From: Escherichia phage vB_EcoM_ESCO50
Strand: one strand, 5' to 3'
Length of the DNA stretch: 64,000 nucleotides
Sequence record: OM386664.1
A program made the translations under genes and the position numbers. Shown piece after piece: positions 6,369 to 59,511 of the stretch (positions are counted from its first letter, which is position 1; each line of letters opens with the position of its first letter). A model generated the notes under the pieces. That model saw only the letters and a list, made by a program, of their open reading frames with translations. It had not been told where the DNA came from and made no database searches.

Positions 6369-7154
6369 TTAGCTCTTTGCGTCTAAGAAGGTAACTTCTG
6401 GTGAAGAGAAGATTGCCTCGATATCCTCATCAGTTCTTGCATAAATGTAAGCATCGGCATCACTACCAAATGTCACAGCAATTCTGTGATTGCTCTTCGA
6501 CAGGTGGGTAACTAGAGCGTTACTTAGAGACATCTTTTCAACCGGAGGGTTACTTTGATGTATCTTACCTTTTCTTCGTCTGAAGAGGGTAACTGCGTTA
6601 TCTGTGAACACAACTACACCTGCAAAGTATTCTGGTTCACAGTAGTTTTTCCAACCTGAGTGTAACTCGTTGTACATCTCTGTCTCGTAGACATACAGAT
6701 AAACATCTACACTCTTCATCACCTGATTGATGATAACTGTGACAGCTTGAGGGTCAAGTCCACCGATACCTGCACCAATCATAGGTAAACCAACTTTCTT
6801 CAACTGGTTAACTTCACAGTATCTGTTAAGTTGCTTCAAAGATGACTCTAAAGCACTGTATCGGGCGTCTTTACCAGTCTTAAGCTGAGTGTAAAGGTTA
6901 GCTATACGACCTTGTTTTAAACGTGCTACAGAGAAATTACCCAGTAAATTTTCACAGGGTTTGTGGCCTATACCACCTGCATAGAGGTAAACTTCTGTAT
7001 CGGTCTCATATGCTTTTGGGTAAAGTTTAGAAATCTTGTCAGCGATACCTGCACCCATTAAATTCATACAGTTGCAACCGTGACCAATGATGTCAAACTT
7101 ACCTTTATCAAAGGCGTCAAAGATATCACCATTGATGATTTTTACAATACCCAT
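6369..7154 (-). CDS. Macro-domain-like protein (ADP-ribose binding/processing) with ~100 aa C-terminal extension
   Basis: N-terminal GDIFDA...DIIGHGCNCMNLMGAGIA and later GLPMIGAGIGGLD resemble macro-domain glycine-rich loops; motif recognition only. Confidence 0.45.
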   Translation of the reverse strand: MGIVKIINGDIFDAFDKGKFDIIGHGCNCMNLMGAGIADKISKLYPKAYETDTEVYLYAGGIGHKPCENLLGNFSVARLKQGRIANLYTQLKTGKDARYSALESSLKQLNRYCEVNQLKKVGLPMIGAGIGGLDPQAVTVIINQVMKSVDVYLYVYETEMYNELHSGWKNYCEPEYFAGVVVFTDNAVTLFRRRKGKIHQSNPPVEKMSLSNALVTHLSKSNHRIAVTFGSDADAYIYARTDEDIEAIFSSPEVTFLDAKS

Positions 7155-10523: not shown

Positions 10524-11633
10524 TTAGATTTCACGTTTACGTTGAGAGATAAGTTCACCAGCAGTGCCAACGATGACATGCAAAGCTTCAGTCTTACCAT
10601 CCCATGCTTTCAGCACTTTACGTTGATTATCAACGATTGCTGCAACTTCATAACGAGAGGAACGCATCTTCATATCGTTGTAATCAGTTGGAACAGATAC
10701 AACATCTCGTGGATGGACACGAACCTTCAGGATGGTATCACCTGAGAAGCAACGAACATAATCCCAAGCACCAACATGAAGACCTTGAGAGCAAGTTACG
10801 TTACGGTTGTTATCAACCATCCAACGTGGCATCTCTACAATGTTACCCAAATCATTAGGTACTCTGTAGGTGTGGGAGTCAACCAGCTTGCCTTCACGAG
10901 TAGATACTTTCTTCCAACCAATGATGTAGCCTTCTTCATCAATTTCAACATCAAGGTGAGATACAAAGCCCCAAAGTTGTTCTACAGAGTCTTTAGATGG
11001 GTTTTCCATCAGTTTTTCGAAGAACATCACAAGGCGTTCAAAACCTTTATCTCCAGTCTTCATCATGTGAAGAATACGGTCAACCAGAGTAGAACGCATC
11101 TCAACAGCACCGTAGAATAGCTTGTCGCCTTTGATTGTGATAGCACCCTGAGTGAAGTTTTCGATAGACTTACGAATGTTCATCAGTTCAAATGCTTTCT
11201 TGAACTCACCCTTCACAACATGAACTACAATCTCTTGATAGTTTGGATGAGTAGACTCAACAATTTCAGATTCTGAACCATAAGTCATAATTACAGAATC
11301 ACCAGTAATCATGTACTCAATATTGTCATCTTTCTGCATAGCTTCATGCAGTTTATTTACCGGAGCTTTCTGTACAGGCTCTTTAACAGCCTTTTTAACT
11401 GGCTTATCAGCTTTCTTTTTAAAGGTCTTAGCAACTTGCTTTAAAGTCTTCGTAGCTGGTGTAGAAGTTGCCTTTTTATTCCCTTTTAAGGTTGCTTCAT
11501 GACGCTCTACAGCACGACCGACTGAACGGGTTGATGTGTTAAATTTCTGTGCAATAGCTGTTTTAGTCAGCTCGCCCTCTTTAACCAGTTTGTAAATTTC
11601 TGCGTCAATCTGTGCTTTAGTTTTAGTAGTCAT
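10524..11633 (-). CDS. Possible rIIB-like protein (369 aa); N-terminal HTH-like segment, Lys/Ala/Pro-rich linker
   Basis: Sits immediately downstream of the rIIA-like gene; assignment rests on position, not on recognised motifs. Confidence 0.3.
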   Translation of the reverse strand: MTTKTKAQIDAEIYKLVKEGELTKTAIAQKFNTSTRSVGRAVERHEATLKGNKKATSTPATKTLKQVAKTFKKKADKPVKKAVKEPVQKAPVNKLHEAMQKDDNIEYMITGDSVIMTYGSESEIVESTHPNYQEIVVHVVKGEFKKAFELMNIRKSIENFTQGAITIKGDKLFYGAVEMRSTLVDRILHMMKTGDKGFERLVMFFEKLMENPSKDSVEQLWGFVSHLDVEIDEEGYIIGWKKVSTREGKLVDSHTYRVPNDLGNIVEMPRWMVDNNRNVTCSQGLHVGAWDYVRCFSGDTILKVRVHPRDVVSVPTDYNDMKMRSSRYEVAAIVDNQRKVLKAWDGKTEALHVIVGTAGELISQRKREI

Positions 11634-11678
11634 CTTATTACTCTCTCTTTTTTAATTAATAAATCATTTTGTGAGGCT

Positions 11679-11708
11679 ATTCTAAGGGGCTTCAAAGCCC
11701 CTTGTCAA
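11679..11708 (-). promoter_or_regulatory. Sigma70-like promoter TTGACA-N18-TAGAAT with hairpin AGGGGCT..AGCCCCT in the spacer
   Basis: Hexamers read on minus strand upstream of 10524-11633. Confidence 0.5.
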
Positions 11709-11713
11709 GAACC

Positions 11714-14080
11714 TTAATCGTAAACTGTTGTACCTTCTGGAACACATTTCACATTAAAGCCTAAAAACTTACTCACTTCAATAGGTGACACTTTATTCCA
11801 ATCTAAATGGGAAAGCAAGAAATTTTCTTGTTTTCTTTTTGAAAGGTAGTTTGTCACCTTAATAACCATACGGTCACCAGCTTTCCTGATTTTCTTGTAA
11901 AGCTTTGTGTTATTGTCAAGACACCCTTTCAGAGTTTGCAAGACACTAATAGTGTAAGTGTACGCAAACGGTGCAGCAACGTATTGGATTTTACCGAACA
12001 TTGCCTCTACAGCCTCTTCATTACCTTCTAGGAAGATAGTTTTGTTAGTATCTCGTGAATAGCAATAACCACGAGAAATCTTCCTGTTATTGAATGTAAA
12101 GTTTCTGGCAATAATCCAACTGCTTGTAAGGTCAAGAACACCATTCATGTAGATGCGTGTCATATACCTGTTATGATTAATCCAATGAACATCCGTTAAG
12201 CTGTCGTTCAAGAGCTTCTCATCTACTTCAATCCAGTCTTCTGGTATCTTTTTCCAATTTGCTTTTCGGAAAACATAGACTGTCTTACCTGTAACATTAG
12301 CAACTGACTTAGCTACATCCTCTGGAGATGAGCAAAAACATCTACCATCAACTGTGTCACCTACTGCCTTAATATAAAGCTGAGGCTCTTCAATTGTGTC
12401 TAAGTCTTCTGACACCTCTTTGTATGAAGCTTTAGTTTCTGCTGGAACAGCTTTCCAGAGTTTTACAACACCTCTTACAGCTTCTTTACGCTGATAGTGA
12501 TGTTCCTTATCAGACATCTTCACAATCTTTAACAAGCTTTTATCAAGTTTGTGCAGATTGATTAAGTCATCTAGCTCTTTCTCTGTAGAGAATACAAAGA
12601 CAATACCATTGTATCTGTGAAACAGATTTGACTCACTGGCGTAGTCTCGACATGCACCACGCAAAATTTGATTGCGTCCTACAGTCTTCTCAGTACCGTT
12701 TTTATTGCGACGGTCATTAATCACGAACAAAAACTGTTCAATTTGGCTTTTACGCATTGCACCAAAGATATTGAACATGCTTGCCTCTTGAGTGTAGGAA
12801 AGTGCTGTTACACGAATCTTACTCTCTAAAGAGTTGAACTTGACATAAGCAACTGGGTCATAAAGATAATCTACTTTAGGGATATTGTTCCCGTTCCTAT
12901 CAACCTTAATATTGCCTTTACCATCACGTTCATAAATGACTGAGCCGTCTTCTGCGTAGATAATTCCACGACGAATGTTTAACAATTCTTCTTCCAGAGA
13001 ATCAAGCTTAACGCCTCCCCACTCTAGCTTTGGACACACAGCATTAAACATCTCTCGTGAGTTCAAACGTAACTCTGCATAAGCCTGTGCAGCATCCATG
13101 AGTGTAGGTTGGCTATTAACTTTCTTGATAACATCCTTTGTAATTGCTTCAGTTATCTTTTTGGTAGCCTCGATGATAACATTTTTTGTCGTATCATTCA
13201 TCTGCAATGCTTCACGAGAAGCTGCTATAGCAACTGAACCAATAGGCATGTAGATGTTTACAAGGTCTACGCTCCTACGGAAAAACTCTGGCAAGACTTT
13301 GAAGAAATCATCACCAAGTAATGCTTCCATGTTCACTGGATAGGCAATATTACCCATCACCACATTAAACTCTAGCCTATTACCACTAGAACGCCAGCTT
13401 TGCTTATGAATCATGGCATCATAAACACCTTCTTCACGGGCAATGACGTTCATATCTGCTAATACATCGTCGTACTCAATATTACTTTCTGGTTTTACAG
13501 CAAAGTATGAGTACACATTTCCAGCTTCTTCAAAGAACTTTGAGATACGGTGGTCAGCAACTGCCACACGTACAGCTAAACCATTAGGTTCTTTTGTTGG
13601 GTTAGTGGTCAGCTTAGTTACTTGAGGGATACCATTCTCAAGATAAACAGAGTACTTATTAACAACACCATCAACATAGCTAGATACTGTGAATGACTGA
13701 GCAATTGCAAATGGAGATTTTGAGCCGATACCCATTGCACCAATGTAGTCATTAGAGTCATTCTTCGTAGAAGCCCCGTAGTTTAGGTACAAACTCATAA
13801 CTTTATCATGAGTCAATCCAGTTCCAAAATCACGAACTTCAAAGTAAGGCTCAAAACGAGTAGGTAAATGCACATGGAACGGGATATTCTCTTTTCCAGC
13901 TTCTTTCTGAGCATCTACTGCATTGCATGACAGTTCACGAATCACTGCCCTTTCTTTAAATGTGTATACACCAGAACTCAGAAGGCTGAACATTTCAGGT
14001 GTCATTGTAATCTGTGCTTGAGATGTCTCCAAAGAAGTTGAACTCTTAATCACTTCTGCGTGGTCATTTACCATGCGCAT
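11714..14080 (-). CDS. rIIA: rIIA-like protein with N-terminal GHKL (Bergerat-fold) ATPase domain
   Basis: N-box ELSCNAVDA, G1 DFGTG, G2 GAMGIGSKS; 788 aa, comparable to T4 rIIA. Confidence 0.55.
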   Translation of the reverse strand: MRMVNDHAEVIKSSTSLETSQAQITMTPEMFSLLSSGVYTFKERAVIRELSCNAVDAQKEAGKENIPFHVHLPTRFEPYFEVRDFGTGLTHDKVMSLYLNYGASTKNDSNDYIGAMGIGSKSPFAIAQSFTVSSYVDGVVNKYSVYLENGIPQVTKLTTNPTKEPNGLAVRVAVADHRISKFFEEAGNVYSYFAVKPESNIEYDDVLADMNVIAREEGVYDAMIHKQSWRSSGNRLEFNVVMGNIAYPVNMEALLGDDFFKVLPEFFRRSVDLVNIYMPIGSVAIAASREALQMNDTTKNVIIEATKKITEAITKDVIKKVNSQPTLMDAAQAYAELRLNSREMFNAVCPKLEWGGVKLDSLEEELLNIRRGIIYAEDGSVIYERDGKGNIKVDRNGNNIPKVDYLYDPVAYVKFNSLESKIRVTALSYTQEASMFNIFGAMRKSQIEQFLFVINDRRNKNGTEKTVGRNQILRGACRDYASESNLFHRYNGIVFVFSTEKELDDLINLHKLDKSLLKIVKMSDKEHHYQRKEAVRGVVKLWKAVPAETKASYKEVSEDLDTIEEPQLYIKAVGDTVDGRCFCSSPEDVAKSVANVTGKTVYVFRKANWKKIPEDWIEVDEKLLNDSLTDVHWINHNRYMTRIYMNGVLDLTSSWIIARNFTFNNRKISRGYCYSRDTNKTIFLEGNEEAVEAMFGKIQYVAAPFAYTYTISVLQTLKGCLDNNTKLYKKIRKAGDRMVIKVTNYLSKRKQENFLLSHLDWNKVSPIEVSKFLGFNVKCVPEGTTVYD

Positions 14081-14266: not shown

Positions 14267-14602
14267 CTATCCAATATGCTTGCATGACTCACCTCTCATA
14301 TTTTTGTAAAGGATAAAGCTTCTGTCATGGACGATACTTGTAGATACTGCAAAGTTACTTTCAAGCATCTGTTTGTTTGGATTGTAGAAGCTTTCTTTAA
14401 ACTCGTCAAGCGCAAATTGGTGATGTTGTGGAAGACCTTTTACACAGATTTTTATTGTGATTGCTGCTGCAATCTTGCCAGTCAGTTCTTCTTTAGCTGC
14501 TACTAAAATTTTGTTAAGAAACTTTTCACCATCTTCAGGTTTTTTAATGTTTTCCCAACGTTCTTCTAGGACAATGTTAATGTTCAACTCTTTGATTTTC
14601 AT
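14267..14602 (-). CDS. Hypothetical protein (111 aa)
   Basis: ORF with GGAG RBS. Confidence 0.5.
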   Translation of the reverse strand: MKIKELNINIVLEERWENIKKPEDGEKFLNKILVAAKEELTGKIAAAITIKICVKGLPQHHQFALDEFKESFYNPNKQMLESNFAVSTSIVHDRSFILYKNMRGESCKHIG

Positions 14603-14619
14603 AGTCTTCTCCAGAAATT

Positions 14620-14640
14620 AAAAAGGCTCCCGTAGGAGCC
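14620..14640 (-). terminator. Hairpin GGCUCC-UACG-GGAGCC plus U-run, between NAMPT-like gene and downstream ORF
   Basis: Inverted repeat with tetraloop and U-tract. Confidence 0.5.
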
Positions 14641-14655
14641 TCTTATCATATACTT

Positions 14656-16437
14656 TTAAAGCTGCTTGTCAATAATATTTCGAATATCACCAAGAGTTGT
14701 GTAACCGAACTGCTCAGAGTCGCTAAAGACTAAACGTAAAGCACAAGCTGGGTGGTCAAGTACGTCTGCAAAACTCTGGAATCCGTAGCCATCTACAGCT
14801 TTCAGCTTATCACCATCCCACATAGGTGCTACACCACCAAAGGCAGACTTCTTAACACCACTATCTGTTTTAGGGTCTTTTGCAAGCATAATCTCTTTAC
14901 CACCAATGCTTGCAAGAGTTGCTTTGACAGCAAATGCAAAGGTGTCACGAGTCATGTACTGGTAAGTGTAAGAGCCTACACCAAATACTACGTTAGAGCT
15001 TGCAAAACCCATTTCATACAGACGCTTCAGGATTTCGTTTGCACGTTCCAGCGTGATAGAGTCACCATAGATAAGGCCAATGTGCTCATCCAGTACCTTA
15101 AAACCTTTAGAGTTAATAGTTCCTCCAAAGATGTTATACAGAGTCTTAATAGCTCCGTCAATCTCAGCTACAGGACGTGTTACAACGTTTGCAGAACCAA
15201 CCATATAAGCATTTTTCAACATCACTGTGTCAGCAACTTCAAAGTCTTCTCTGTCAACAACCATTTCGTAGCCTTCTGACAGTAGCCATCCAGCAATACC
15301 ATAGTTGATGTTTTCAAGCTTCATGTTCAGAACAGCATTCAACATTGTGTCGCTGGCTTCCAGCTTGCTTAGGTGCTCGTAATAAGCCTTCTTAGCACAT
15401 TCTAAGTGGATTGCTTTATAACCTGTGACAATATGTACAGGGTCTCCAGAGTCAGGACGAATTACCAGTTTGCCATCACGTTCCATAATTTCTTTACGAA
15501 GTGCTGGTAAAATTTCTGACACAGTTCTCCAGAAGTTATAAGTGTCTGAAACAATACTTGCAATACCAGTTGGGTAAGTTTCTGTTAAGAAACGACGGAA
15601 GGTTTGCAACTCACCTTTAAATCGTCTTTCTTCTTCAACCAACTCGTTACCACCTTCCCAAGCAATGTTTGCACACATTACAGAGTGTTCAGTGGCTGGT
15701 ACAGAGCTTCCAATATCAGAGATTGGATAGGTCTGCCCATAGATACGTTTAGCCGTGTATACAGCAGGGAAGCTATCAGTCCCTTTAAAGCTGGTTAAGT
15801 GGCCTACAGCATTGAATGCGTCATCAGTAAAGCCTGACATACCACGCATAGCAAAGTCATGGCACTGATAAGGTAAATGCAAGTCATTGTCGCAAGTAAG
15901 GTCAGCCCACTTCTTACAGATACGTTTGTAGTGTAATGCAATAGTAGCAATGGTGCAAGCTTTCCAAATCTCAGCAGAGAAAGCGTCTTCCAGATAACCT
16001 GCTACCCAATGGAAACCTGAAACAGTGTTCTGGAAGACAATCATTGGGACACGCATAGGAACAACTGTACCTTCTTCTACAGCGTACACTTCAACTGGTA
16101 GATAGCCTAAGTCGTGAAGTGCTTCCCAATGCTCTCGACCGATAGCATCTTTACCCAGAACACCATTCATAACTTCTAAGATTTCGTCAATTGCTTCTTT
16201 TTTATCACGTTCAAAGAAAGTGGCGTTCCAGTGGTCTATCAAGTAATCTTTAACAAAACGTTGAATACCAAAAGCCACTACACCATCAATTGCTAAAGGA
16301 CTGTTAAACCATTTGTCGCTACGTGGTGTTAGGTTCAACATAAGATATTGCGTAGCATCTGGATACTGATATATATGTGATGCCTTGTAAGCATCTGCAT
16401 TAAGACCTGCTGGTACTGCGTAAAGTGACTTACTCAT
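14656..16437 (-). CDS. Nicotinamide phosphoribosyltransferase-family enzyme (NAMPT/NadV-like; candidate Namat of a NARP1-type pathway)
   Basis: HDFAMRGMSGFTDDAFNAVGHLTSFKGTDSF aligns with the NAMPT active-site region HDFGYRG...FKGTD; 593 aa. Confidence 0.8.
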   Translation of the reverse strand: MSKSLYAVPAGLNADAYKASHIYQYPDATQYLMLNLTPRSDKWFNSPLAIDGVVAFGIQRFVKDYLIDHWNATFFERDKKEAIDEILEVMNGVLGKDAIGREHWEALHDLGYLPVEVYAVEEGTVVPMRVPMIVFQNTVSGFHWVAGYLEDAFSAEIWKACTIATIALHYKRICKKWADLTCDNDLHLPYQCHDFAMRGMSGFTDDAFNAVGHLTSFKGTDSFPAVYTAKRIYGQTYPISDIGSSVPATEHSVMCANIAWEGGNELVEEERRFKGELQTFRRFLTETYPTGIASIVSDTYNFWRTVSEILPALRKEIMERDGKLVIRPDSGDPVHIVTGYKAIHLECAKKAYYEHLSKLEASDTMLNAVLNMKLENINYGIAGWLLSEGYEMVVDREDFEVADTVMLKNAYMVGSANVVTRPVAEIDGAIKTLYNIFGGTINSKGFKVLDEHIGLIYGDSITLERANEILKRLYEMGFASSNVVFGVGSYTYQYMTRDTFAFAVKATLASIGGKEIMLAKDPKTDSGVKKSAFGGVAPMWDGDKLKAVDGYGFQSFADVLDHPACALRLVFSDSEQFGYTTLGDIRNIIDKQL

Positions 16438-16451
16438 ATTTTATCTCTCTC

Positions 16452-16943
16452 TTAGTTATGTCTTGCAAACTCACCATGAAGTTCTATTCGCTTTTTAATT
16501 ACAGCTTCTTTTGCTTCTTCTACCGTTTTAAATCTTCCACAAAAGTATTCTTTATAGTAAAGCATGACTCTTGCTTTGTAAAGACCTGTTTGTTTACAAA
16601 AACTTACACCCTTCACACCAGTTTTATTATTCTTGTGTATACCCCTATTTCGCTGATTTTGTGACTTTGTGCTAAGTCTTAAATTCTCCAACTTATTATT
16701 AGCTTTATCAAGGTCTATGTGGTCTACCTCATATCCACTTGGTATCTCACCTCCAGACATAATCCATGCAATATTATGTGCATAGTACCTCTTCTTATTT
16801 ATCTGGACTTGGATATAACCCTTCTTAGACCTTGTGCCAGCCACATTACCAGCAATAGCGGTACTGCAAAGGGTTACTCTCCAAATTAATAAACCTGTAT
16901 CTGGTTCATATATTAGGTATTTTTCAAAATAACCCTTATTCAT
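16452..16943 (-). CDS. HNH homing endonuclease with C-terminal AP2-like DNA-binding domain
   Basis: HNH motif EVDHIDLDKANNKLENLRL; AP2-like TGVKGVSF...YKARV; paralog of 39707-40210. Confidence 0.75.
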   Translation of the reverse strand: MNKGYFEKYLIYEPDTGLLIWRVTLCSTAIAGNVAGTRSKKGYIQVQINKKRYYAHNIAWIMSGGEIPSGYEVDHIDLDKANNKLENLRLSTKSQNQRNRGIHKNNKTGVKGVSFCKQTGLYKARVMLYYKEYFCGRFKTVEEAKEAVIKKRIELHGEFARHN

Positions 16944-16951
16944 ACTGTTAC

Positions 16952-17857
16952 CTAATCAAGGTTTGCTACAGTAACTTTACCATAATGTGTTAAGCCACGG
17001 TCTTTAGCTTCCCCTAAAGAGTTTGTAGTGTAGATATGGTCAATGCCATTGTCAAGAAGGTTTTCAACATCTTTAGAGAAGATACCATGTGTTACATAAA
17101 GTTCCACACGTTTTGCACCTGCTTCACGAAGATGTTTCGCTGCTTCTATGAAGGTTCGACCACCATCACAAATATCATCAAGAATCATGACAGTTTTATC
17201 TGTCAAATCAACATCATCAAGGATTCGCATACCAGTTATTTCACCAGTCTTAAGGTTGCGTACTTTAGACATTGTGATATATGGTTTATCCACCTCTTTA
17301 GCAGTCTCTGCAATCTTCTTAGAAGCACCTGCATCTGGGGCTACTAAGTAATCAATCAGAGGGTCATTTGCATAGTGGACTGCAATCTCCTTTTGAGGAA
17401 TACTTTGGAAGCAGTTGAAAAGGTTATCTGGAACGTAACTATGAGGGTCAACTGCACAGACTGCATCAAAACCCATTGCATTAACCTGTTGTGCAAACAC
17501 TTTCAAAGCTGCTGCATCACCTTTAAACATGTGACGGTCGTAACGTGCATTTGGCAAATAGTAAAAGATAGCAGTCTTCATAGCAAACTTATGAGGTACT
17601 AAATCATCAATTGCTTCTTTAGCAAGTGCCACAGCAAACAATGTGTCCTTGTCATAGCCTTTTACAATAATAACCACATTGTTGATGGATGATGCTGCAT
17701 AAGCAGTAAAATCAACAAGCTCTTGTGAAAAGTGTCCACCAATCTCACCAGAAGGGAACTGGATGATGTTAAACTCTTCTTCATGAGACCCTTTTGTCGG
17801 TGAATGAATTATAACACGAATCGATGTCTTCATAGTTTTCCCTCTCTTTATTCCCAA
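16952..17857 (-). CDS. Ribose-phosphate pyrophosphokinase (Prs)-family enzyme (candidate Adps of a NARP1-type pathway)
   Basis: PRPP-binding loop ILDDICDGGRTF, NARYDR motif; 301 aa. Confidence 0.75.
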   Translation of the reverse strand: MGIKRGKTMKTSIRVIIHSPTKGSHEEEFNIIQFPSGEIGGHFSQELVDFTAYAASSINNVVIIVKGYDKDTLFAVALAKEAIDDLVPHKFAMKTAIFYYLPNARYDRHMFKGDAAALKVFAQQVNAMGFDAVCAVDPHSYVPDNLFNCFQSIPQKEIAVHYANDPLIDYLVAPDAGASKKIAETAKEVDKPYITMSKVRNLKTGEITGMRILDDVDLTDKTVMILDDICDGGRTFIEAAKHLREAGAKRVELYVTHGIFSKDVENLLDNGIDHIYTTNSLGEAKDRGLTHYGKVTVANLD

Positions 17858-18255
17858 ATAACCTTTCTACGCTTTATCTGGATAATGTTCTTTTTACAAT
17901 ATTCGATAGCTTCATCTATTGACCCAAAACTTTCCTTCTCCACAAAGAAGCGAACTTCACCATCTTGTATCTTTTGTTCTTCGGCTGTTGGCTCTTCAAG
18001 TATTTTACTTGATACTTCTCTGTTAATCTGCATTACATACTCGAAAGAGTTCTTCTTGTACCCAACTATTTTAATGTAACCCCTCTGGCGAAGACGATTG
18101 AACCGAGTTGACTTGTTTGTCTTGGATACATCTGGAAATTCCTTGTCATGGATACTACGTATCTGTGAGCAAGTAAATGTTTTATCATAACCAAACTCAT
18201 TATACAGGACTTTTAACAGTTCAATCATAACATCACTCCCAAATAACTTTTGCAT
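17848..18255 (-). CDS. Paralog-family protein A1 (ends ...RRKVIWE); start set at MQKLFGS by analogy with A2
   Basis: Shares N-terminal LLKVLY..FG.DKTF and C-terminal EAIE(H/Y)CKK..I..K..K(V/I)(I/V)WE with three neighbours; track ORF extends to 18300. Confidence 0.5.
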   Translation of the reverse strand: MQKLFGSDVMIELLKVLYNEFGYDKTFTCSQIRSIHDKEFPDVSKTNKSTRFNRLRQRGYIKIVGYKKNSFEYVMQINREVSSKILEEPTAEEQKIQDGEVRFFVEKESFGSIDEAIEYCKKNIIQIKRRKVIWE

Positions 18256-18697
18256 GTTTAACTTTAATAAGATGCTCTTTGCAGTGCTCAATAGCTTCAT
18301 CTAGTGTTTTAAACATAACATCCGCGATAAAGTATCTTACGTCAGGTTGTACATCAACATCTTTAACCTCAGATAAGTTTGATTTTTGTGAACTCCCCAA
18401 CTCTTCACGCGTGTTATCTAGCATCCTTGACAGTTGTATGTGCTTCTCCATAAAGGCTCGATTTAATTGATTAATACTTAGTCTACCTTTGCTTTTTACC
18501 TGCCCTACAGTCAGCAGTACACCAGACTGTCTTAACATTGTTAGATACCCACGGGTATTACTGATTGACTGGCCTCGTATAAAAAGGCTATTCTCTCTTA
18601 ATGCGTCAATTGCTTCGTTAGAGTCAAAAGTGTTTTCTGTCCCGAAGGTTTTGTATAAAATCTCTATTACGTGCTTCTGTAAATTGCAAAAAATCAT
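18233..18697 (-). CDS. Paralog-family protein B1 (154 aa)
   Basis: Conserved C-terminal ...DEAIEHCKEHLIKVKHAKVIWE; 23-nt overlap with A1. Confidence 0.55.
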   Translation of the reverse strand: MIFCNLQKHVIEILYKTFGTENTFDSNEAIDALRENSLFIRGQSISNTRGYLTMLRQSGVLLTVGQVKSKGRLSINQLNRAFMEKHIQLSRMLDNTREELGSSQKSNLSEVKDVDVQPDVRYFIADVMFKTLDEAIEHCKEHLIKVKHAKVIWE

Positions 18698-18718
18698 AGT
18701 GTATTCCTAATCAAATGT

Positions 18719-19141
18719 TTAAACTTCTTCCCAAACAATACGCTTTCTTTTTGTTTGGATAACCGTTCTCTTACAATGCTCAACTGCTGCCTCCATACTG
18801 GTAAAGTGTATGTCACCTATGAAGTATCCTACTTCACCTACACTAACCTCTTCATCCTTTTGTTGATGGCCATTACAATTTAGAAGCACATTTTTAGCTT
18901 TGCTTTCATTGATTCTCATAAGATACTCATTATTAAATCCTGTCGCTCCAACAACACTAATGTACCCACTTTTACGTAATCTGTGAGACCAATTAGCTTT
19001 ATCCCTGATTGAAGCATGTGGTAGATATTTATTAAAAACCTTAGTTAGTTGTGAGCCAGAAAATGTTTTATCATAGCCAAAATTTATATACAGAACCTTC
19101 AGAAGCTCAAACATGTTATTACTCCCAAATAATTTTTGCAC
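18719..19141 (-). CDS. Paralog-family protein A2 (140 aa)
   Basis: MQKLFGS N-terminus; conserved C-terminal motif. Confidence 0.55.
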   Translation of the reverse strand: MQKLFGSNNMFELLKVLYINFGYDKTFSGSQLTKVFNKYLPHASIRDKANWSHRLRKSGYISVVGATGFNNEYLMRINESKAKNVLLNCNGHQQKDEEVSVGEVGYFIGDIHFTSMEAAVEHCKRTVIQTKRKRIVWEEV

Positions 19142-19574
19142 GTTTTACTTTGATAATATACTTTTTGCAGTGTTCAACAGCATCTTGGAGTGTATCAAAC
19201 ATCAACTCACCAATAAAGAATTTTATGTCTGGAGACACACCTACACCACCACTTAAGTCTTTTTGCTGCTCTTCACGTTGGTTTCGTGGCTCTTTAAGTA
19301 AATAGTCTAGCTGAATGTGCTTCTCAATAAAACCTCTATTTAATTGGTTGATGAGCATCCTCCCTTGTTGCTTAATCTGTCCTACCACGATGAGCACACC
19401 CCACTTTCTCATCTGAGTCAAGTAGTACCTGATGTTTGCTATTGGCTGTTTTTTGATGTAATCACTTCCTTCTTGTAGGGCTTCAATAGCTTCATTTGAG
19501 TCAAATGTGTTATCTGTCCCAAACTTATTGTATAGAATCTCAATAATTCTTTTTTGGAAGCTGCAAAAAATCAT
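19119..19574 (-). CDS. Paralog-family protein B2 (151 aa)
   Basis: MIFCSFQK N-terminus like B1; 23-nt overlap with A2. Confidence 0.55.
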   Translation of the reverse strand: MIFCSFQKRIIEILYNKFGTDNTFDSNEAIEALQEGSDYIKKQPIANIRYYLTQMRKWGVLIVVGQIKQQGRMLINQLNRGFIEKHIQLDYLLKEPRNQREEQQKDLSGGVGVSPDIKFFIGELMFDTLQDAVEHCKKYIIKVKRAKIIWE

Positions 19575-19583
19575 AATTTTCTC

Positions 19584-19862
19584 TCAATCAAAAGTTACGT
19601 TTGTTACTGCCATTGCAGATTTGCATTTTACAGGGTCTACAACGTGATAAAGTACACTACAGTTACCTGTGCTGTCTGGTACAGGCTTTACCCATTGCTG
19701 CTTTATAGTTGGTTCTCCTAAGTCTTTGTAAGAGCCGTCTGTAAAATTGTTTACCATCTCAAGTGCAATTGGTTCTGGGACATGACCACGTATCATGTAC
19801 ATTTCACAACCATTACCACCATCGCTGACTAGTGGTAAAATCTCCCACTTTTCTTTAGCCAT
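19584..19862 (-). CDS. Hypothetical Cys-containing protein (92 aa)
   Basis: ORF. Confidence 0.45.
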   Translation of the reverse strand: MAKEKWEILPLVSDGGNGCEMYMIRGHVPEPIALEMVNNFTDGSYKDLGEPTIKQQWVKPVPDSTGNCSVLYHVVDPVKCKSAMAVTNVTFD

Positions 19863-20370: not shown

Positions 20371-20382
20371 ATTATCTCCAAA

Positions 20383-20408
20383 ATAAAAAGGGAACCTTTA
20401 CAGTTCCC
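20383..20408 (-). terminator. Hairpin AGGGAAC...GTTCCCT followed by U-run on minus transcript
   Basis: Inverted repeat plus A-run on plus strand. Confidence 0.45.
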
Positions 20409-20421
20409 TTATAGTATTTGT

Positions 20422-20742: not shown

Positions 20743-20744
20743 GA

Positions 20745-21002
20745 TTATTTAGCCTTCTTATTACGTTTATGGTTACGAGCTTTCTTAGCTGCTCGTTTAA
20801 TAGCTGCTGCACCAGACGGACGGTGGGCTTGTTTCTTACCACCTTTATCACGGCCTACATAGATACTTTTCATAACCTCATTAGCCAGCTTCTCCTCCAT
20901 CTTAAAGTTCTGCATAAGATGAGTCACATCAACACCAGTGAGCATACCTAATGAAGCTAGTGCTGCTTTTACTTTTGATTTAAAACTATTCCAGAGTCCC
21001 AT
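20745..21002 (-). CDS. Hypothetical protein (85 aa) with strongly basic C-terminus
   Basis: ORF; C-terminal KRAAKKARNHKRNKKAK. Confidence 0.5.
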   Translation of the reverse strand: MGLWNSFKSKVKAALASLGMLTGVDVTHLMQNFKMEEKLANEVMKSIYVGRDKGGKKQAHRPSGAAAIKRAAKKARNHKRNKKAK

Positions 21003-21006
21003 TTCA

Positions 21007-21041
<35 letters not shown>

Positions 21042-21697: not shown

Positions 21698-23842
21698 TTA
21701 CATAGAAACCCTATCCTTAATTTCTGCCATCTTAGCGTCATTCATTCGAGACTGACCTTTAATTTTTGTGAATGACAAGTACCCGCACACCCTGTTAATC
21801 ACAGAGATATCGTGTGAATGACAAACCTCACATTCTTCAACATCAGCCTTTGGTCTGTTACCACAATGTTCACAGATTGCTAAGTCAAAGTTAAGGCCCT
21901 GATAGAAACCTTTCAACATCCCTCTGGTAATACAACTTTTAAGTGCTGATAAGTTTTCTGGATTAGCTACCCTTACATACTGGATTCTGCCGCCTCTACA
22001 GATATGGAAGAATGGCTCTTCTAAGTCCTGCTTCTCAAATGGTGTAATATCTGCTGCAACATTCATATGAAAACTATTTGTAAAGTATTCCTTATCAGAA
22101 ACACCTTTGATAACGCCAAACATATCTCTGAACTGTTTTAGCTGAGTTCCACAAAGTGATTCTGCTGGAGTGCCATATACCGCATACAAGAAGCCATCTT
22201 CGTTCTTAAACTCTTCAGTTTTCATGTTAATGTATGCCAGAACATCATATGCAAAACTACAGCTTCCAACTTCATGGAGTCGTTTACCCTCAGCAAGAAC
22301 AGATAGCTCATCAAGCGCAGTAACCCCAAAAGAGGCTGTGAAAGATTTCATGATATCCCAACCAACCTTATCAGTAGGCTTCTTAGTCCCTTTGTACAGA
22401 CCACCTTGTGTAAATGCAAGAGGGTTAGAACTTGCTGGCATATTAGCAATCATTTCGTAACGTTTCTTGTGGAAGCTGCGAATCATCTCTAGGTACTTAT
22501 CAAGCTCTTTCCAGAAATCTAAACCATTCTCTTTAGAATACTGGTAAATCATTGGTAAGTTCAAAGATACAGCACCAATGTTAGCACGACCAACGTAGAA
22601 CTCTTCCCCATTCTCGTTAAAATATGGAGATAAGAAGGCTCTGCAACCCATCGGGGAAATTACCTTGCCAGAACGCTCAAAAGCCTCTGCTACAGCACCA
22701 TGACCAGATACACTTAAGAAATCTGGATACATTGCTTTAGAGCAACACTCGATGGCTTTACTGTACAGGTGTCCTTGACAGATATTCTCATCGTGTCTCT
22801 TCTGGTCATAAATATAAACCAGTTTAGGAAATACAACAGGCTTCTTACTCTTACCTTGTCCATTCATACGAACATCTAGGAGGGTACTTGCAATCATGTA
22901 TTGCAGTCGGTTATCTTCATTAGACATATCTGAGTCAAGTAACCCGAATGTCAAAGTTGTGAATGCAAAATCCCCACGGCTACAAGGTACAGTGTTTAGT
23001 TTCATTTCAAGTGACTGGAAACCTTGAGTCAGTTCAATCTGTAGCTGCTCCATGACATAATTGTGGTAATGTTCTTTAGGAATACCATAAGATGCTGCTT
23101 TCTCAGCATGATAGCGTAGAGACTTCTTAGCATACGGCACAAGTACCTTATCAATCTCTGCTAAAGTAAAACCACCAAATTGCTGTGCAGTTGCTGAAAG
23201 AACTACATCACCAATAACCTGTAAGGCTGACAGTACAGACTTCGGTTCACAGTATTCAATGCCAGACATTTCAAAGCCACCTTTCAGGACTTTACCAATG
23301 TCAAACAGACAACAGTTGATACCACCAAAAATTAGGTCTCTTAAATCATGGATATAGATAAACCCTTTTTCAATGGCTTCAAGTTCCTCTGGTGTTAAAT
23401 GGTACTGTTTAAAGATTTCTTTAGTCAGATAACCACGAATAATTGAGCCTTTTGTAGAAATTAAACTGCTGTCAAAGTTAGCATTCTCTCTGTCACCTAA
23501 GAAGAGTGTATCTTTGGTCTTCTGGTAAAGTTCATCCCAATTTTGAGCAACTTCTTTACGGTAATTTCTATATGTTGAGTAAGACTCATAAATCTCGTGG
23601 TTGACTTCTGCCAAAGCACCCTCAACAATACTGTGAATATCATTTACTGAAATGAGTAAATTATTCTGCTTAGTGGATTTTACCAGAACCCTCATAAATG
23701 CTGACTCAAGAGCTTGGGTAACATCTGGTGGAAGCTCTTTATAACCAACTCTGTTAGCTGACTTTGTGACTGCTGTTAAAACTTTTTTGATATCAGGTTC
23801 TTCGAGTGAGCCATTCTTTTTAATAATCTGTACTTTGTTCAT
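21698..23842 (-). CDS. nrdD: Anaerobic ribonucleoside-triphosphate reductase (class III)
   Basis: 714 aa; C-terminal glycyl-radical motif RVCGYL and Zn site CEHCG...CEVC. Confidence 0.85.
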   Translation of the reverse strand: MNKVQIIKKNGSLEEPDIKKVLTAVTKSANRVGYKELPPDVTQALESAFMRVLVKSTKQNNLLISVNDIHSIVEGALAEVNHEIYESYSTYRNYRKEVAQNWDELYQKTKDTLFLGDRENANFDSSLISTKGSIIRGYLTKEIFKQYHLTPEELEAIEKGFIYIHDLRDLIFGGINCCLFDIGKVLKGGFEMSGIEYCEPKSVLSALQVIGDVVLSATAQQFGGFTLAEIDKVLVPYAKKSLRYHAEKAASYGIPKEHYHNYVMEQLQIELTQGFQSLEMKLNTVPCSRGDFAFTTLTFGLLDSDMSNEDNRLQYMIASTLLDVRMNGQGKSKKPVVFPKLVYIYDQKRHDENICQGHLYSKAIECCSKAMYPDFLSVSGHGAVAEAFERSGKVISPMGCRAFLSPYFNENGEEFYVGRANIGAVSLNLPMIYQYSKENGLDFWKELDKYLEMIRSFHKKRYEMIANMPASSNPLAFTQGGLYKGTKKPTDKVGWDIMKSFTASFGVTALDELSVLAEGKRLHEVGSCSFAYDVLAYINMKTEEFKNEDGFLYAVYGTPAESLCGTQLKQFRDMFGVIKGVSDKEYFTNSFHMNVAADITPFEKQDLEEPFFHICRGGRIQYVRVANPENLSALKSCITRGMLKGFYQGLNFDLAICEHCGNRPKADVEECEVCHSHDISVINRVCGYLSFTKIKGQSRMNDAKMAEIKDRVSM

Positions 23843-29631: not shown

Positions 29632-30129
29632 TCAAGCACAATTTGCTTTCATTACCTTGTGGATTCTTTTTTCAGCATCTTCATAAGTTTCTTTAGTAAT
29701 AAACTTAATTGCTGCAATGTTGGCATTGTAGAAGAGTCTGAGCTTAGAGTCAATCCTTTTTGTCATTACATCGAATTTATGTTGAAGGTTTGCTTCACCA
29801 TAGACTAGACCGCCTTTTGTGTAGTAGGTCTGAATAATGTAAAAGTCAAAAAATTCTTTCCCAAAGCTCTCAATATCTTTTTTAATATACTCAGAAGAAG
29901 TCTCGTAAGTCAGCCAATCACTTTCCTTAGTGACTACCTTCTTCCGAGTCTTCCCAGCAACTTTTCTTTTGGTCACACTGTTAAGCTGTTTCTTTCCTAT
30001 ATAATATTGTCCAGTCTTCTTACAGTGTACTAAATAGACAAAGCCAAAATGTTTAGTGGGGTCAACTTCCCCACATAAAGATACCCAATGACCATAGGTG
30101 GGGCAATTGCCAAATCCTTTAATCTTCAT
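29632..30129 (-). CDS. GIY-YIG-type endonuclease-like protein
   Basis: GFVYLV...GQYYIGKK motif. Confidence 0.5.
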   Translation of the reverse strand: MKIKGFGNCPTYGHWVSLCGEVDPTKHFGFVYLVHCKKTGQYYIGKKQLNSVTKRKVAGKTRKKVVTKESDWLTYETSSEYIKKDIESFGKEFFDFYIIQTYYTKGGLVYGEANLQHKFDVMTKRIDSKLRLFYNANIAAIKFITKETYEDAEKRIHKVMKANCA

Positions 30130-37025: not shown

Positions 37026-39725
37026 ATGGAAAACGTAGATTTTAAAAACTTACATTTAGTTGGCGATACAGAAACTGATGGTTTGCTCCTTGAGTTCACT
37101 AAAGTGCACGTAATGGCTTTCGCAGACTATAAATCTGACGATGAAGAGCCACCTGTATGGGTCTTTACAGATGAGCCTATCCTCGGTCACAAGTACACTA
37201 AGTACCTTAAGGGTGGTTTACGTGAAGGTGTTGAGTTTGCGTTAAAGGCAAAACGTCTTTGCATCCATAATGGTCTCGGTTATGACTGGTGGGTTTTCAA
37301 TCACATTGCACCGGATTTATGGAACTTTGATAATCCAAAGTGTAAGCCGTGGAGTAATTTCTTTCAGGATTCTCTTATCCAGTCTCGTGTTCAGTGGATG
37401 GATAGGCCAACTCCAAAGGGTTATAAAGGTGCTCATGGTTTGGCTGCATGGGGTGCTCGTGTTGGTGTTCGTAAGCCAGAGATTGAGCATTGGGGTGTGT
37501 GGAATGCAGAAATCTTCACTCGTGTTGTAGATGATATCCGTATTAACGCCAAAACTAAACGGGCACTTGATAACGAGTATCTCAAGCTTAAGAAGTGTGG
37601 CATAGACACTTATGAAACCTACATGCGAGCTAAAGAAACATCTTTCTGGATGAGTCAACAAGCTATCAATGGTTGGAAAGCTGATAAAGAGCTTATGGAG
37701 TTCCATGTGAAGGAACTTGACAAGTTGACTAATGAGCTTGCTTCAGAGGTTGAACCACATCTTCCTCCAACTATTAAGACCAAAGGTAAAGTCACTGGAG
37801 AAGAGTTTGCAAAAGCTTGGAATGAGTATGTTGAAACATTTGGTCATGCAGATGGACTGAAAAGAATTACCAAGTACCCTAAGACAAAGTATCGTCAGCA
37901 GGTACGTAATGGTGAGATGCAGACATACGAAATCAAACCATTTGGTAAGCCAACTACAAAGATTTTTAACATTGAAAAGAGAAATTGCTATACACCAACC
38001 AACTCTGTAACTGGTGAAGAGTACAAGGAAGGTTTTGTAGCAATGAAGGATGCTCGTGCAATTTGCAATGAGTTGAATGCAAAGATTGGTAAGAAGTGCA
38101 AAGACTGGAAGCCAGTAAAAACAGTCAAAACTGTGAAGTATTATAACAGCCACGTTGTTAACCACTTTGAACTTGAGTCAAGTCGCTACACAGGTTTGAT
38201 TGATGCACCATATACACCAATTGAGTTTGAAGTTTCTCGTATGACTCAGGTAGCAGTTGTTAAAGACTACTTGAAATCAGTTGGTTGGATTCCAGATGAC
38301 TGGAACTACAAGAAAGACTCAGACGGTCGCCCTGTCAAAGTTTGTCGTTTCAAAGACAATAAAAAGATGATTACAAAACATCCTAAGTGGCAGGAGATGG
38401 TTGAACGGTGTGGTTTGAGTTATGTTGAACATGAAGGTGTACAGTACATTGAGCATAACTGGTCTGTGAAGAAATACACAGATTTGCTTGAACCTTGCTT
38501 AATCCGTACTTCACCAAAACTTACTGAATCATCTTATGACACGATTGAAGGTGAGCTTGGACAGAAGATTGCGAAATACTACACTTTGATGCACAGACGC
38601 AGAACTATTGAGAACTCAAAGGATGATGAAAAAGGTTGGTTAAACCAGATTCGTCCCGATGGTCGCCTTAGTGCTGGTGCAATGGTGTTTGGTACTTCAA
38701 CTGGACGTATGACACAATATGGTATTGTAAACGTACCATCTGGTGCTGCTGTCTATGGAGCACCTATGAGGGAGGTTTGGACTTGTGAAGATGGTACAGA
38801 TATCATTTCCGTAGACCAAAACTCAGCCCAGCTAGTTCTCCTTTGTAACTTTATGGGTGATGAAGACTTCACTAAAGCGGTAACTGAGGGTAAAGAGTCA
38901 GTAGAGTTCACTAAGCAAGATGATGGTAGATACTACTGTAAGCATCTTGACAAGTATCTTAACCCAGAAACTGACAAGTATCTGCGTTATGATGCTGAAA
39001 ATGACCTCTATGAAGTCTACACAGGGACTGATGCGCATACACTGAACAGTATTTACTTTGGTCTGAACAAAGAAGAAGATATTGTTCGTTGTAGGGAGAC
39101 ACAGGATGAGGAGCTTCTTCACGAGATTACAAAAGGTCGTAAGAAGAGCAAAAATGGCATCTACGCCCTGTTATTTGGAGCCGGAGACGAGAAGTTTGCA
39201 AAAACTATCAAGGCATCATCTACGGAAGAAGGTGCATTGACTAAACAAACTTACTTTGTGCGTCTACCTAAGATTAAAAAGCTGCTTGATAGACTAGAGG
39301 AAGACTTCAAAGCAACTAAGAAAGCACTTGAAGAGGTTTTTGGAAAAACTTCTGCAATTGCGAAAGGTGGGTACATCAAAGTTGCTGGAGCGTGGTTATG
39401 GTGTAAATCTCCACATAAGTTATTGAATTACACACTTATGGGCAGTGAGGCGCAGGTGCAGAATGAGGGTATTAACTTGGCTAACAGAGAGTTAACAGAG
39501 CGTAAGCTTACAGTCCTAAATGGTAGGAAACCAGCTATTGGTGCTAGATGGGTCTGTAGTTACCACGACGAAGTTTCTTTAGAGGTTCCAACAAAAGATG
39601 TACCAGATGTTAAGGAGATTATTGATAGGATGTATGGTCAAGCATCAAAAAATCTTGGATTAAAAAGTAAGACGCTTGTTACAGGCACTGGTAAGGTAGG
39701 TAAGACATGGTACGCCGTACACTAA
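37026..39725 (+). CDS. DNA polymerase, family A, with 3'-5' exonuclease domain
   Basis: Exo I VGDTETDGL; motif A DQNSAQL; motif B KKSKNGIYALLFGAGDEKF (T7 gene 5-like); motif C YHDE. Confidence 0.9.
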   Translation: MENVDFKNLHLVGDTETDGLLLEFTKVHVMAFADYKSDDEEPPVWVFTDEPILGHKYTKYLKGGLREGVEFALKAKRLCIHNGLGYDWWVFNHIAPDLWNFDNPKCKPWSNFFQDSLIQSRVQWMDRPTPKGYKGAHGLAAWGARVGVRKPEIEHWGVWNAEIFTRVVDDIRINAKTKRALDNEYLKLKKCGIDTYETYMRAKETSFWMSQQAINGWKADKELMEFHVKELDKLTNELASEVEPHLPPTIKTKGKVTGEEFAKAWNEYVETFGHADGLKRITKYPKTKYRQQVRNGEMQTYEIKPFGKPTTKIFNIEKRNCYTPTNSVTGEEYKEGFVAMKDARAICNELNAKIGKKCKDWKPVKTVKTVKYYNSHVVNHFELESSRYTGLIDAPYTPIEFEVSRMTQVAVVKDYLKSVGWIPDDWNYKKDSDGRPVKVCRFKDNKKMITKHPKWQEMVERCGLSYVEHEGVQYIEHNWSVKKYTDLLEPCLIRTSPKLTESSYDTIEGELGQKIAKYYTLMHRRRTIENSKDDEKGWLNQIRPDGRLSAGAMVFGTSTGRMTQYGIVNVPSGAAVYGAPMREVWTCEDGTDIISVDQNSAQLVLLCNFMGDEDFTKAVTEGKESVEFTKQDDGRYYCKHLDKYLNPETDKYLRYDAENDLYEVYTGTDAHTLNSIYFGLNKEEDIVRCRETQDEELLHEITKGRKKSKNGIYALLFGAGDEKFAKTIKASSTEEGALTKQTYFVRLPKIKKLLDRLEEDFKATKKALEEVFGKTSAIAKGGYIKVAGAWLWCKSPHKLLNYTLMGSEAQVQNEGINLANRELTERKLTVLNGRKPAIGARWVCSYHDEVSLEVPTKDVPDVKEIIDRMYGQASKNLGLKSKTLVTGTGKVGKTWYAVH

Positions 39726-40210
39726 CACTTCAAGATTACAAGGACAATTTTATTTACGACCCCGACAAAGGGGTCTTCTACAACAAGTATGACAGGAATA
39801 GGCAAGCTAAAGCTGGTCAGGTTGCCGGAGGAAGTGATGCTTATGGTTACAGGGTACTTAAATTCAAAGGTGTTGTAATAAAAGTACATCACCTTGTTTG
39901 GTGGTTTGAGCATGGTTACAAACCTACTAAGATGATAGACCACATTGATGGTAATAGGAGCAATAACCACATTTCTAATCTTAGAGAGGCCGATAAATAT
40001 GGAAACGCTCAAAACAGAGTAAAGCAGACAACTAACAAATCAGGTTACAAGGGTGTATATTACTTTAAAGACTGCAATAAGTGGAGGGCAGCTATAACAT
40101 GCAGAGGTAAAAGGACATCACTTGGTTTATTTGACACACCTGAAGAAGCCCATAAAGCTTACTGTGAAGCTGCTATAAAACTCCACGGAGAGTTTGCAAA
40201 ACTAAGTTGA
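39707..40210 (+). CDS. HNH homing endonuclease with AP2-like domain; overlaps polymerase 3' end by 19 nt
   Basis: HNH motif MIDHIDGNRSNNHISNL; AP2-like GYKGVYYF; paralog of 16452-16943. Confidence 0.75.
   Translation: MVRRTLTLQDYKDNFIYDPDKGVFYNKYDRNRQAKAGQVAGGSDAYGYRVLKFKGVVIKVHHLVWWFEHGYKPTKMIDHIDGNRSNNHISNLREADKYGNAQNRVKQTTNKSGYKGVYYFKDCNKWRAAITCRGKRTSLGLFDTPEEAHKAYCEAAIKLHGEFAKLS

Positions 40211-51480: not shown

Positions 51481-59511
<8,031 letters not shown>

Follow-up and report, generated by a model that had tools for sequence, protein, structure and literature searches.

How should one read a pair of phage genes whose family names belong to nucleotide salvage, when the two stand on either side of an endonuclease gene? 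The pair in question lies in Escherichia phage vB_EcoM_ESCO50, of which a stretch of 64,000 nt of record OM386664.1 was analysed (the window; all positions are counted in it). Our answer, given with high confidence, is that the two genes form the counter-defence operon NARP1, here in a Felix O1-like phage and made of adps (ADP-ribose pyrophosphate synthetase, Adps) and namat (nicotinamide ADP-ribose transferase, Namat), with a selfish HNH gene as a passenger between them. NARP1 was discovered as the pair Adps plus Namat in the Felixounavirus Bas63, where it is encoded by genes 79-80 (bioRxiv 10.1101/2024.02.11.579819).

On the minus strand, the list of open reading frames (ORFs) gives three close-packed genes in the order Prs-like, HNH and NAMPT-like. 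The first, adps (16952..17833, 293 residues), is assigned by Pfam, PHROG 619 and identity to Bas63 gp79, and its stop codon lies 8 nt from the start of the HNH gene (16452..16943, 163 residues; Pfam HNH_3, PHROG 99). The latter ends 14 nt before namat (14656..16437, 593 residues), which is assigned by its identity to Bas63 gp80. The 514 bp between the two enzyme genes are occupied only by the HNH gene, all three genes share a strand, and this arrangement would imply that they are co-transcribed. Where does adps begin? The mechanically called ORF is 16952..17857, with 301 residues from a TTG at 17857, overlapping the preceding gene at its stop codon and lacking a ribosome-binding site. The ATG at 17833 has the Shine-Dalgarno sequence AGAGAGGG before it and falls where gp79 of Bas63 is annotated to begin; because of these two features it is almost certainly the true start, giving 293 residues and not 301.

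The next question is to which phages this locus belongs. A megablast search of 14400-18300 against GenBank phages returned 260 records, mostly of Escherichia, Salmonella, Shigella and Citrobacter phages, and the records inspected were Ounavirinae, mainly Felixounavirus (Felix O1-like). By its sequence the window is a Felixounavirus genome, and its minus strand corresponds to the plus strand of the related genomes. Bas63 (JohannRWettstein, MZ501086) carries genes 79-80 at 52746-55454. Namat of the window is identical to gp80 at 579/593 residues (98%) with no gaps, and Adps to gp79 at 231/293 (79%) with the same length. The surroundings are also shared: homologues of gp77 and gp78 lie upstream, and downstream are those of gp82, gp83 and rIIA, the last being a 788-residue ORF (11714..14080) whose counterpart bears the annotation rIIA in both Bas63 and phage ESCO49. 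Bas63 gp81, a 345-bp ORF, has no counterpart in the ORF list of the window. The two operons thus agree in genus, genomic position and orientation, in the length of Namat and in the identity of its clamp residues. However, Bas63 has a 45-bp hairpin spacer in place of the HNH gene (492 bp in the window), its namat is of another haplotype over the first 34 codons, its Adps is of another allele over the N-terminal two-thirds, and it is without a four-gene paralogue cassette that the window has upstream of adps. With ESCO49, adps shares 100% nucleotide identity.

What the Bas63 operon does is already clear from published experiments. Bas63 without genes 79-80 is sensitised ∼20-fold to SIR2-HerA, NAD+ is partly restored by wild-type Bas63 only, and ADP-ribose pyrophosphate (ADPR-PP, m/z 720.010) appears only in wild-type infections of defence-carrying cells (bioRxiv 10.1101/2024.02.11.579819). 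With purified proteins of Sp-beta-L1, Adps converts ADP-ribose (ADPR) and ATP into ADPR-PP, and Namat converts ADPR-PP and nicotinamide into NAD+ (bioRxiv 10.1101/2024.02.11.579819). By analogy with Bas63 in vivo and Sp-beta-L1 in vitro, the two proteins of the window would have the same activities. In such a pathway, defences such as SIR2-HerA, Thoeris, DSR, SEFIR and others would cleave NAD+ to ADPR and nicotinamide; Adps would use ATP to pyrophosphorylate the ADPR to ADPR-PP; and Namat would join ADPR-PP and nicotinamide directly to NAD+, with no need for a nicotinamide mononucleotide (NMN) adenylyltransferase (NMNAT).

Does the NAMPT-like protein carry the marks of a Namat? An initial annotation, made from the sequence alone, had described it as a 593-residue NAMPT-family protein with the motifs HDFAMRGMSG and FKGTDSF; both motifs are present, and Pfam (NAPRTase 3e-35, NAMPT_N 9e-06) and PHROGs (nicotinamide phosphoribosyltransferase 3e-201) agree with this description. 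Its best solved relatives are 9w5w, 9w5x and 9ke8 (491-496 residues, best E 2e-129), which were deposited as nicotinamide phosphoribosyltransferase, while Nampt entries trail far behind at E 1e-52 or weaker. The numbering of 9w5w fits the residues given in PMC12774641 with a 5-residue offset, and this entry, like 9w5x, is probably a crystal structure of Sp-beta-L1 Namat. The core of this enzyme consists of F189, R192, D215, R306 and D308 plus a catalytic His marked without a number; its signature, GSX-Phi-X-Phi-X-Phi-TRD, is that of the selectivity clamp, and a variable loop gives to the clamp either Arg or, as in Bas63, Lys/Tyr and then a stacking residue (PMC12774641).

In the HMMER alignment with 9w5w, F195, R198, D221, R327 and D329 of the window Namat fall on these five residues in turn, GDS stands at 458-460, and His251 falls in the conserved block PATEHSVMC. 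We take His251 to be the catalytic His (human His247). The signature is found as GSYTYQYMTRD at residues 488-498, with Tyr at both motif positions 3 and 7, and the clamp loop (beta1-beta2), TPRSDKWF, places Lys42 at the position of Sp-beta-L1 Arg40, followed by Trp43, exactly as in Bas63. Every Namat feature tested, that is, core, signature and clamp loop, is therefore present. Compared with Sp-beta-L1 Namat, the catalytic core and the class of SCH motif (GS-aromatic-...-TRD) are the same, whereas the window has Lys42-Trp43 for Arg40, Ser for Ala362 and Tyr for Phe392. Compared with 9w5w (496 residues), the window Namat is longer by ∼100 residues, with insertions of ∼77 (351-427) and ∼15 residues (263-277). 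Both insertions are common to Bas63, and the ∼77-residue one is partly shared with Vibrio phage Noelle.

As for the Prs-like partner, the initial annotation had the family right and the length wrong: Pfam (Pribosyltran 2e-11, Pribosyl_synth 4e-10) and PHROGs (ribose-phosphate pyrophosphokinase 7e-98), searched with the 301-residue ORF, support a Prs-family protein, and the motif ILDDICDGGRTF is there, in a protein of 293 residues. Against NCBIfam, Adps passes only the broad subfamily model TIGR01251 (124.9 vs cut-off 113) and stays below every Prs equivalog cut-off, the best being NF002095 (107 bits vs 296). Its bit scores are 484 with Bas63 Adps, 118 with the Adps of Vibrio phage Noelle and 70 with the best solved cellular Prs, and its identity to Adps from the NARP1 operon of a Vibrio phage is 41%. 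Together, bit scores and equivalog cut-offs fit a divergent phage clade apart from cellular Prs. Adps carries the loop DDICDGGRT, aligned to the Prs loop DDIISTGGT, and its MSKVRN segment has a Lys opposite that of IEKERD in Prs; presumably, DDICDGGRT is the ribose-phosphate-binding loop known from Prs and this Lys belongs to the catalytic flexible loop. In Sp-beta-L1 Adps, the catalytic Lys is K162. Family models had been named at the outset as a check; NCBIfam gave no Adps- or Namat-specific model for the proteins of the window, which still go by the names Prs and NAPRTase, and so it offers no direct test of membership.

Could the phage encode the remaining enzyme of a different pathway? All 96 non-overlapping ORFs of at least 45 residues called in the window were scanned against Pfam, and neither CTP_transf_like nor any other NMNAT family was found at E<=1e-3, as the initial annotation had supposed; the scan covers the window, and ∼22 kb of the ∼86-kb genome falls outside it. 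For Bas63, no NMNAT is annotated in the inspected half of the genome. What Pfam recognises in the window is ribonucleotide reductases, glutaredoxin, dNMP kinase, DHFR and thymidylate synthase, DNA polymerase, ligase and primase-helicase, tail and baseplate proteins, two further endonucleases and one Macro domain. An accessory gene of the RyR/RyDEP type was also considered, and the scans of the window gave no RyR match.

These data separate the locus from two related systems. NARP2 (Nampt plus Nmnat, Vibrio phage KVP40) likewise restores NAD+ through a NAMPT-family enzyme, but it requires an NMNAT, of which none is detectable in the window, and it has no Adps partner. NARP1-AP (Adps-Adpp-Namat, in Vibrio phages Gary and Noelle; bioRxiv 10.64898/2026.01.28.702374) resembles the present operon in that a third gene fills the slot between Adps and Namat, but here the gene in the slot encodes an endonuclease and not a Macro phosphatase. 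No Macro-domain gene was found within two genes of the NARP1 core, and the sole Macro ORF of the window lies ∼7.5 kb and more than 10 genes from namat. Every feature that can be tested in silico therefore places the locus in NARP1; it is not NARP2, because the window holds no recognisable NMNAT, and it is not NARP1-AP, because there is no Macro gene in the operon. The initial annotation had preferred NARP1 to a route through NadV plus NMNAT, and this preference is sustained by the genus, by the 98% and 79% identity to the Bas63 pair, by the clamp signature of Namat and by the lack of an NMNAT in the window. It had also spoken of a candidate; the pathway stands, and the status changes, as the operon belongs to the founding, experimentally characterised lineage.

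Another question concerns the gene in the middle. The initial annotation placed an HNH-AP2 gene between two genes 0.5 kb apart, and the position (514 bp) and the HNH part are well supported, the 163-residue protein matching Pfam HNH_3 at 4e-19 and PHROGs HNH endonuclease at 2e-67. The AP2 match stays below the Pfam cut-off (5e-04, 20.6 bits vs 33.3); an AP2-like C-terminus is supported indirectly by a paralogue at 39707..40210, 35% identical, which does pass it. This paralogue is a second HNH_3 plus AP2 gene, on the plus strand and directly after the DNA polymerase gene. The operon HNH gene matches 61 phage records, Felix O1 included, in a single copy each and at 89-99.8% identity, and ∼150 relatives are without it, a 45-bp spacer with a hairpin standing there instead. 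It sits between the same two genes in the window, Felix O1 (ORF128), VSe11, I14.1, ASO1B, SME50 and SUSP1, and is absent from the junction in Bas63, ESCO49, Andreotti, wV8, SP116, IME338 and RPN213. When 60 evenly spaced records were sampled from the 215 that match the Bas63 junction, 43 had it uninterrupted (∼72%) and 14 had it split by the HNH gene.

The junction itself is precise. All seven of the HNH-less genomes (7/7) have a conserved 45-bp spacer with the hairpin GGGGCTT(A/G)AAAGCCCC, then TTTT and then the namat ribosome-binding site GAGAGAGA. In the seven carriers (7/7) the HNH ORF replaces the hairpin at an identical point and ends just before GAGAGAGA. Only two flanking sites are fixed between carriers and HNH-less genomes, the third base of the adps stop codon and codon 2 of namat; the stop is TAG in 7/7 carriers and TAA or TGA without HNH. 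The spacer corresponds to 16528..16572 of the compared Bas63 stretch, and with its GC-rich hairpin and T run it is terminator- or attenuator-like; the record of phage AYO145A annotates the hairpin between adps and namat as a "terminator".

Felix O1 has six homing endonuclease genes (PMC4837284), and Felix O1-like phages differ from one another chiefly in such genes, gained or lost within conserved genes or between them (PMC3728262). Felix O1 (NC_005282) has the same Prs-like/HNH/NadV-like order in ORF127-ORF128-nadV and the same HNH insertion point, and the annotation of the HNH gene at this position of the operon goes back to that genome. In nucleotides the HNH gene of Felix O1 and that of the window are 89% identical; the 5' two-thirds of adps are of a different allele (58-78% per 90 nt), and the locus was annotated as a salvage of phosphoribosyl pyrophosphate (PRPP) and NMN before NARP1 was known. 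The free-standing seg/mob endonucleases of T-even phages offer a parallel, being likewise intergenic between conserved genes, polymorphic in presence and accompanied by co-conversion of flanking markers, whereas the endonuclease of the window is of the HNH_3 plus AP2-like type.

How did the HNH gene reach this genome? A three-way alignment gives an indication. Against the HNH-less ESCO49, the ∼4 kb that flank the HNH gene towards adps (16952-21000) hold only 5 mismatches, and the first ∼140 nt of namat hold 38; the mismatches then thin out to ∼450 nt and give way to near-identity. Against AN17P8, which carries the HNH gene, the pattern is the reverse: 0-1 mismatches per 100 nt from ∼16000 to 16900 and 1-10 per 100 nt elsewhere. 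At 44 consecutive informative sites (15985-16438) the window agrees with AN17P8 and differs from ESCO49, and no ESCO49-like site occurs between 15962 and 16977; the flanks are all ESCO49-like (19 sites at 15352-15961 and 18 at 16979-17378), and beyond the patch the window differs from ESCO49 by 0-1 mismatch per 100 bp. The two HNH genes are the same save one base. The patch, 15985..16952 by its informative limits, thus comprises the HNH gene together with the adps stop codon and ∼453 nt from the start of namat; allowing for the gaps between informative sites, it is ∼1 kb long, with a share of ∼453-476 nt from namat and no more than 25 nt from adps. The window therefore looks like an ESCO49-like backbone carrying an AN17P8-like patch, and this is an addition to what was already known of the locus. 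At the edge of the patch, position 16978 has a unique substitution near the 3' end of adps, Gln to Lys (HYG-K-VTV), seen in 0/13 compared genomes.

All seven HNH carriers (7/7) share one haplotype at nt 34-102 of namat, and the changes of this 5' haplotype with respect to Bas63 (T2S, S19A, G20S, V22I, S27D, E30Q and F34L) touch no catalytic or clamp residue. Among the HNH-less genomes 5/7 have the other haplotype, and 2/7, IME338 and RPN213, carry the "HNH" one; because of these two, the haplotype is not claimed as a mark of the recognition site. Two further mosaic patches with respect to ESCO49, without an endonuclease gene, lie at 15025..15229 (in namat) and 11400..12194 (3' end of rIIA and rIIB).

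Presence or absence at exactly the same site among close relatives, together with the location inside a ∼1-kb recombinant patch, is why the HNH gene is regarded as a free-standing homing endonuclease gene, of predicted activity, and as a selfish passenger outside the pathway; this upholds the selfish element that the initial annotation had seen inside the pair. The patch suggests endonuclease-driven homing with one-sided co-conversion. In such a history, the HNH gene would have taken the place of the 45-bp hairpin spacer: a break in an ESCO49-like genome, probably made within the 5' portion of namat, would have been repaired from an HNH-carrying phage, with copying of the HNH gene and ∼450 nt of namat.

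What can be held against this reading of the locus, and what else could explain it? Several points weigh against it. The chemistry known in vitro comes from the more distant Sp-beta-L1 proteins and bears on the window by analogy; Bas63 Adps could not be purified (bioRxiv 10.1101/2024.02.11.579819); the window Adps differs from it at 21% of residues, mostly in the N-terminal 190; the Bas63 operon that was tested is without HNH, and we infer the function of the interrupted one from conservation; the link between HNH and the namat haplotype is not exclusive, given IME338 and RPN213; and further mosaic patches that contain no endonuclease, 15025-15229 and 11400-12194, occur nearby. The pair might instead serve conventional NAD salvage, in which PRPP comes from the Prs-like enzyme and NMN, made of PRPP and nicotinamide, from the NadV-like one, and NAD+ synthesis is finished by NadR or PncC of the host. 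Such a role agrees with Pfam, PHROGs, NCBIfam and GenBank, all of which name the proteins Prs and nicotinamide/nicotinate phosphoribosyltransferase, and with the residual PRPP-dependent NMN synthesis that Namat keeps in vitro (PMC12774641; bioRxiv 10.1101/2024.02.11.579819). However, the Sp-beta-L1 homologue gave no product in a PRPP-synthetase assay, described with ribose-5-phosphate and ATP in the legend of Figure 2D and with "PRPP and ATP" in the main text, yet it made ADPR-PP from ADPR and ATP (bioRxiv 10.1101/2024.02.11.579819). With the adenine-clamp signature present in Namat, and Adps under all Prs equivalog cut-offs, salvage is scarcely credible as the explanation of this pair. Perhaps the pathway is the right one and the insertion has uncoupled or crippled it, through polar effects or the loss of the intercistronic hairpin, so that NARP1 does not work here. 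The sole Felixounavirus operon tested, that of Bas63, has no insertion, and the conserved spacer is deleted in the genomes that carry HNH. Yet neither enzyme ORF is truncated and all key residues are kept, the ribosome-binding region of namat (GAGAGAGA) is retained, the three genes follow one another on one strand at 8 and 14 nt, 61 records, that of the type phage Felix O1 among them, show the arrangement to be stable, and other NARP1 operons function with a gene (Macro/Adpp, RyDEP) added in them; a broken operon is thus very unlikely.

The same scrutiny applies to homing. Ordinary homologous recombination between co-infecting Felixounaviruses could have brought in the HNH gene and the patch, with an endonuclease that may even be inactive. 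Such recombination does shuffle the region, since the two endonuclease-free patches lie within a few kb; moreover, two HNH-less phages share the namat 5' haplotype, and the cleavage site is putative. Nevertheless, the patch is centred on the HNH gene and strongly one-sided, with at most 25 nt on the adps side vs ∼450 nt on the namat side, which is what one expects from the repair of a break to one side of the insertion. The HNH ORF is intact and 89-99.8% conserved in its 61 records, the insertion point is identical even in genomes as distant as SUSP1, and it is documented that Felix O1-like phages differ mainly by having gained or lost homing endonuclease genes (PMC3728262). Recombination without homing is accordingly unlikely, and homing into the NARP1 operon is the reading that we retain.

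What do these findings add? As a discovery the operon carries little weight: NARP1 was defined in a phage of the same genus, and both the pathway and the three-gene arrangement (Felix O1, GenBank) were already known. There is value for annotation, because ∼215-260 Felix O1-like records still label the two proteins "ribose-phosphate pyrophosphokinase" and "nicotinamide phosphoribosyltransferase". The patch offers a natural example of a homing endonuclease moving part of a counter-defence gene between phages, and it could be used to map the target of the endonuclease.

As for the limits of the transcription unit, a consensus scan gave a strong terminator-like hairpin on the minus strand, AAGAGGCTCC-TACG-GGAGCCTTTT plus a T run, at 14621..14644, 12 nt past the namat stop. 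This hairpin (14644..14621) is the probable 3' end of the unit, and a second one at 20410..20388 may close the preceding unit. Both are suggestive only, because the promoter and terminator scan gave site counts in the region that are not above the expectation from shuffled sequence. A promoter-like 10/12 match within adps (17055..17027) was set aside, as it is coding sequence and conserved in HNH-less phages too.

Another point is the Macro-domain protein of the window (261 residues, 6369..7154, minus strand), encoded ∼7.5 kb from namat and annotated "putative phosphatase". It has an extra C-terminal region of ∼100 residues and matches Pfam Macro (1e-06), PHROG 335 "phosphatase" (1e-113) and, below the cut-off, NCBIfam DarG (8e-13); its closest solved relatives are TARG1/OARD1, followed by viral macrodomains, and Poa1p is matched weakly. 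With the Macro protein whose gene separates those of Adps and Namat in Vibrio phage Noelle, in an operon of the NARP1-AP type, it shares 29% identity, and homologous genes occur in ∼2,850 phage records, T4-like phages included. The published survey of NARP1 neighbourhoods went no further than two genes from NARP1, so that a distal Adpp-like enzyme would be missed. Do Felix O1-like phages run a split NARP1-AP, in which the Macro protein converts ADPR-1''-phosphate, or another ADP-ribose derivative, to ADPR for Adps? The idea is tentative and rather unlikely; if true, defences of the aRES type might be resisted by these phages as well. A different, unrelated role, for example that of an ADP-ribose hydrolase reversing ADP-ribosylation, is at least as likely, because of the likeness to DarG and TARG1 and the occurrence in ∼2,850 phage records including T4-like phages.

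Directly upstream of adps, on the minus strand, lie the four tandem paralogous genes of the cassette mentioned above (17848..19574), encoding proteins of 150, 154, 140 and 151 residues. They are of two alternating types, all phrog_29478 (function unassigned in PHROGs), and match no Pfam family. ESCO49 has the cassette, whereas Bas63, Felix O1 and AN17P8 do not; it occurs in only ∼15 phage records, and a database of 5.8 billion proteins holds only 8 clusters of such proteins, none of them named. An AlphaFold model is confident only in an N-terminal winged-helix-like domain, and Foldseek likens the model only weakly to MarR/PadR regulators (best E 3e-3).

A few other features of the window may be recorded. 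A SegE-like GIY-YIG endonuclease gene lies at 29632..30129 on the minus strand. The nrdD gene (21698..23842) is uninterrupted; that of Bas63 is split by an insertion that contains an endonuclease. At ∼20990..21040, between an 85-residue ORF and nrdG, there is a (GA/CT)n run, deduced from the translations RERERERER and LSLSLSLSLS. Lastly, record PP892526.1 (phage vB_EcoM_I14.1) is classed as Tequintavirus (Demerecviridae), yet its adps-HNH-namat locus is typical of Felixounavirus, and the classification is probably a taxonomy error in the GenBank record.

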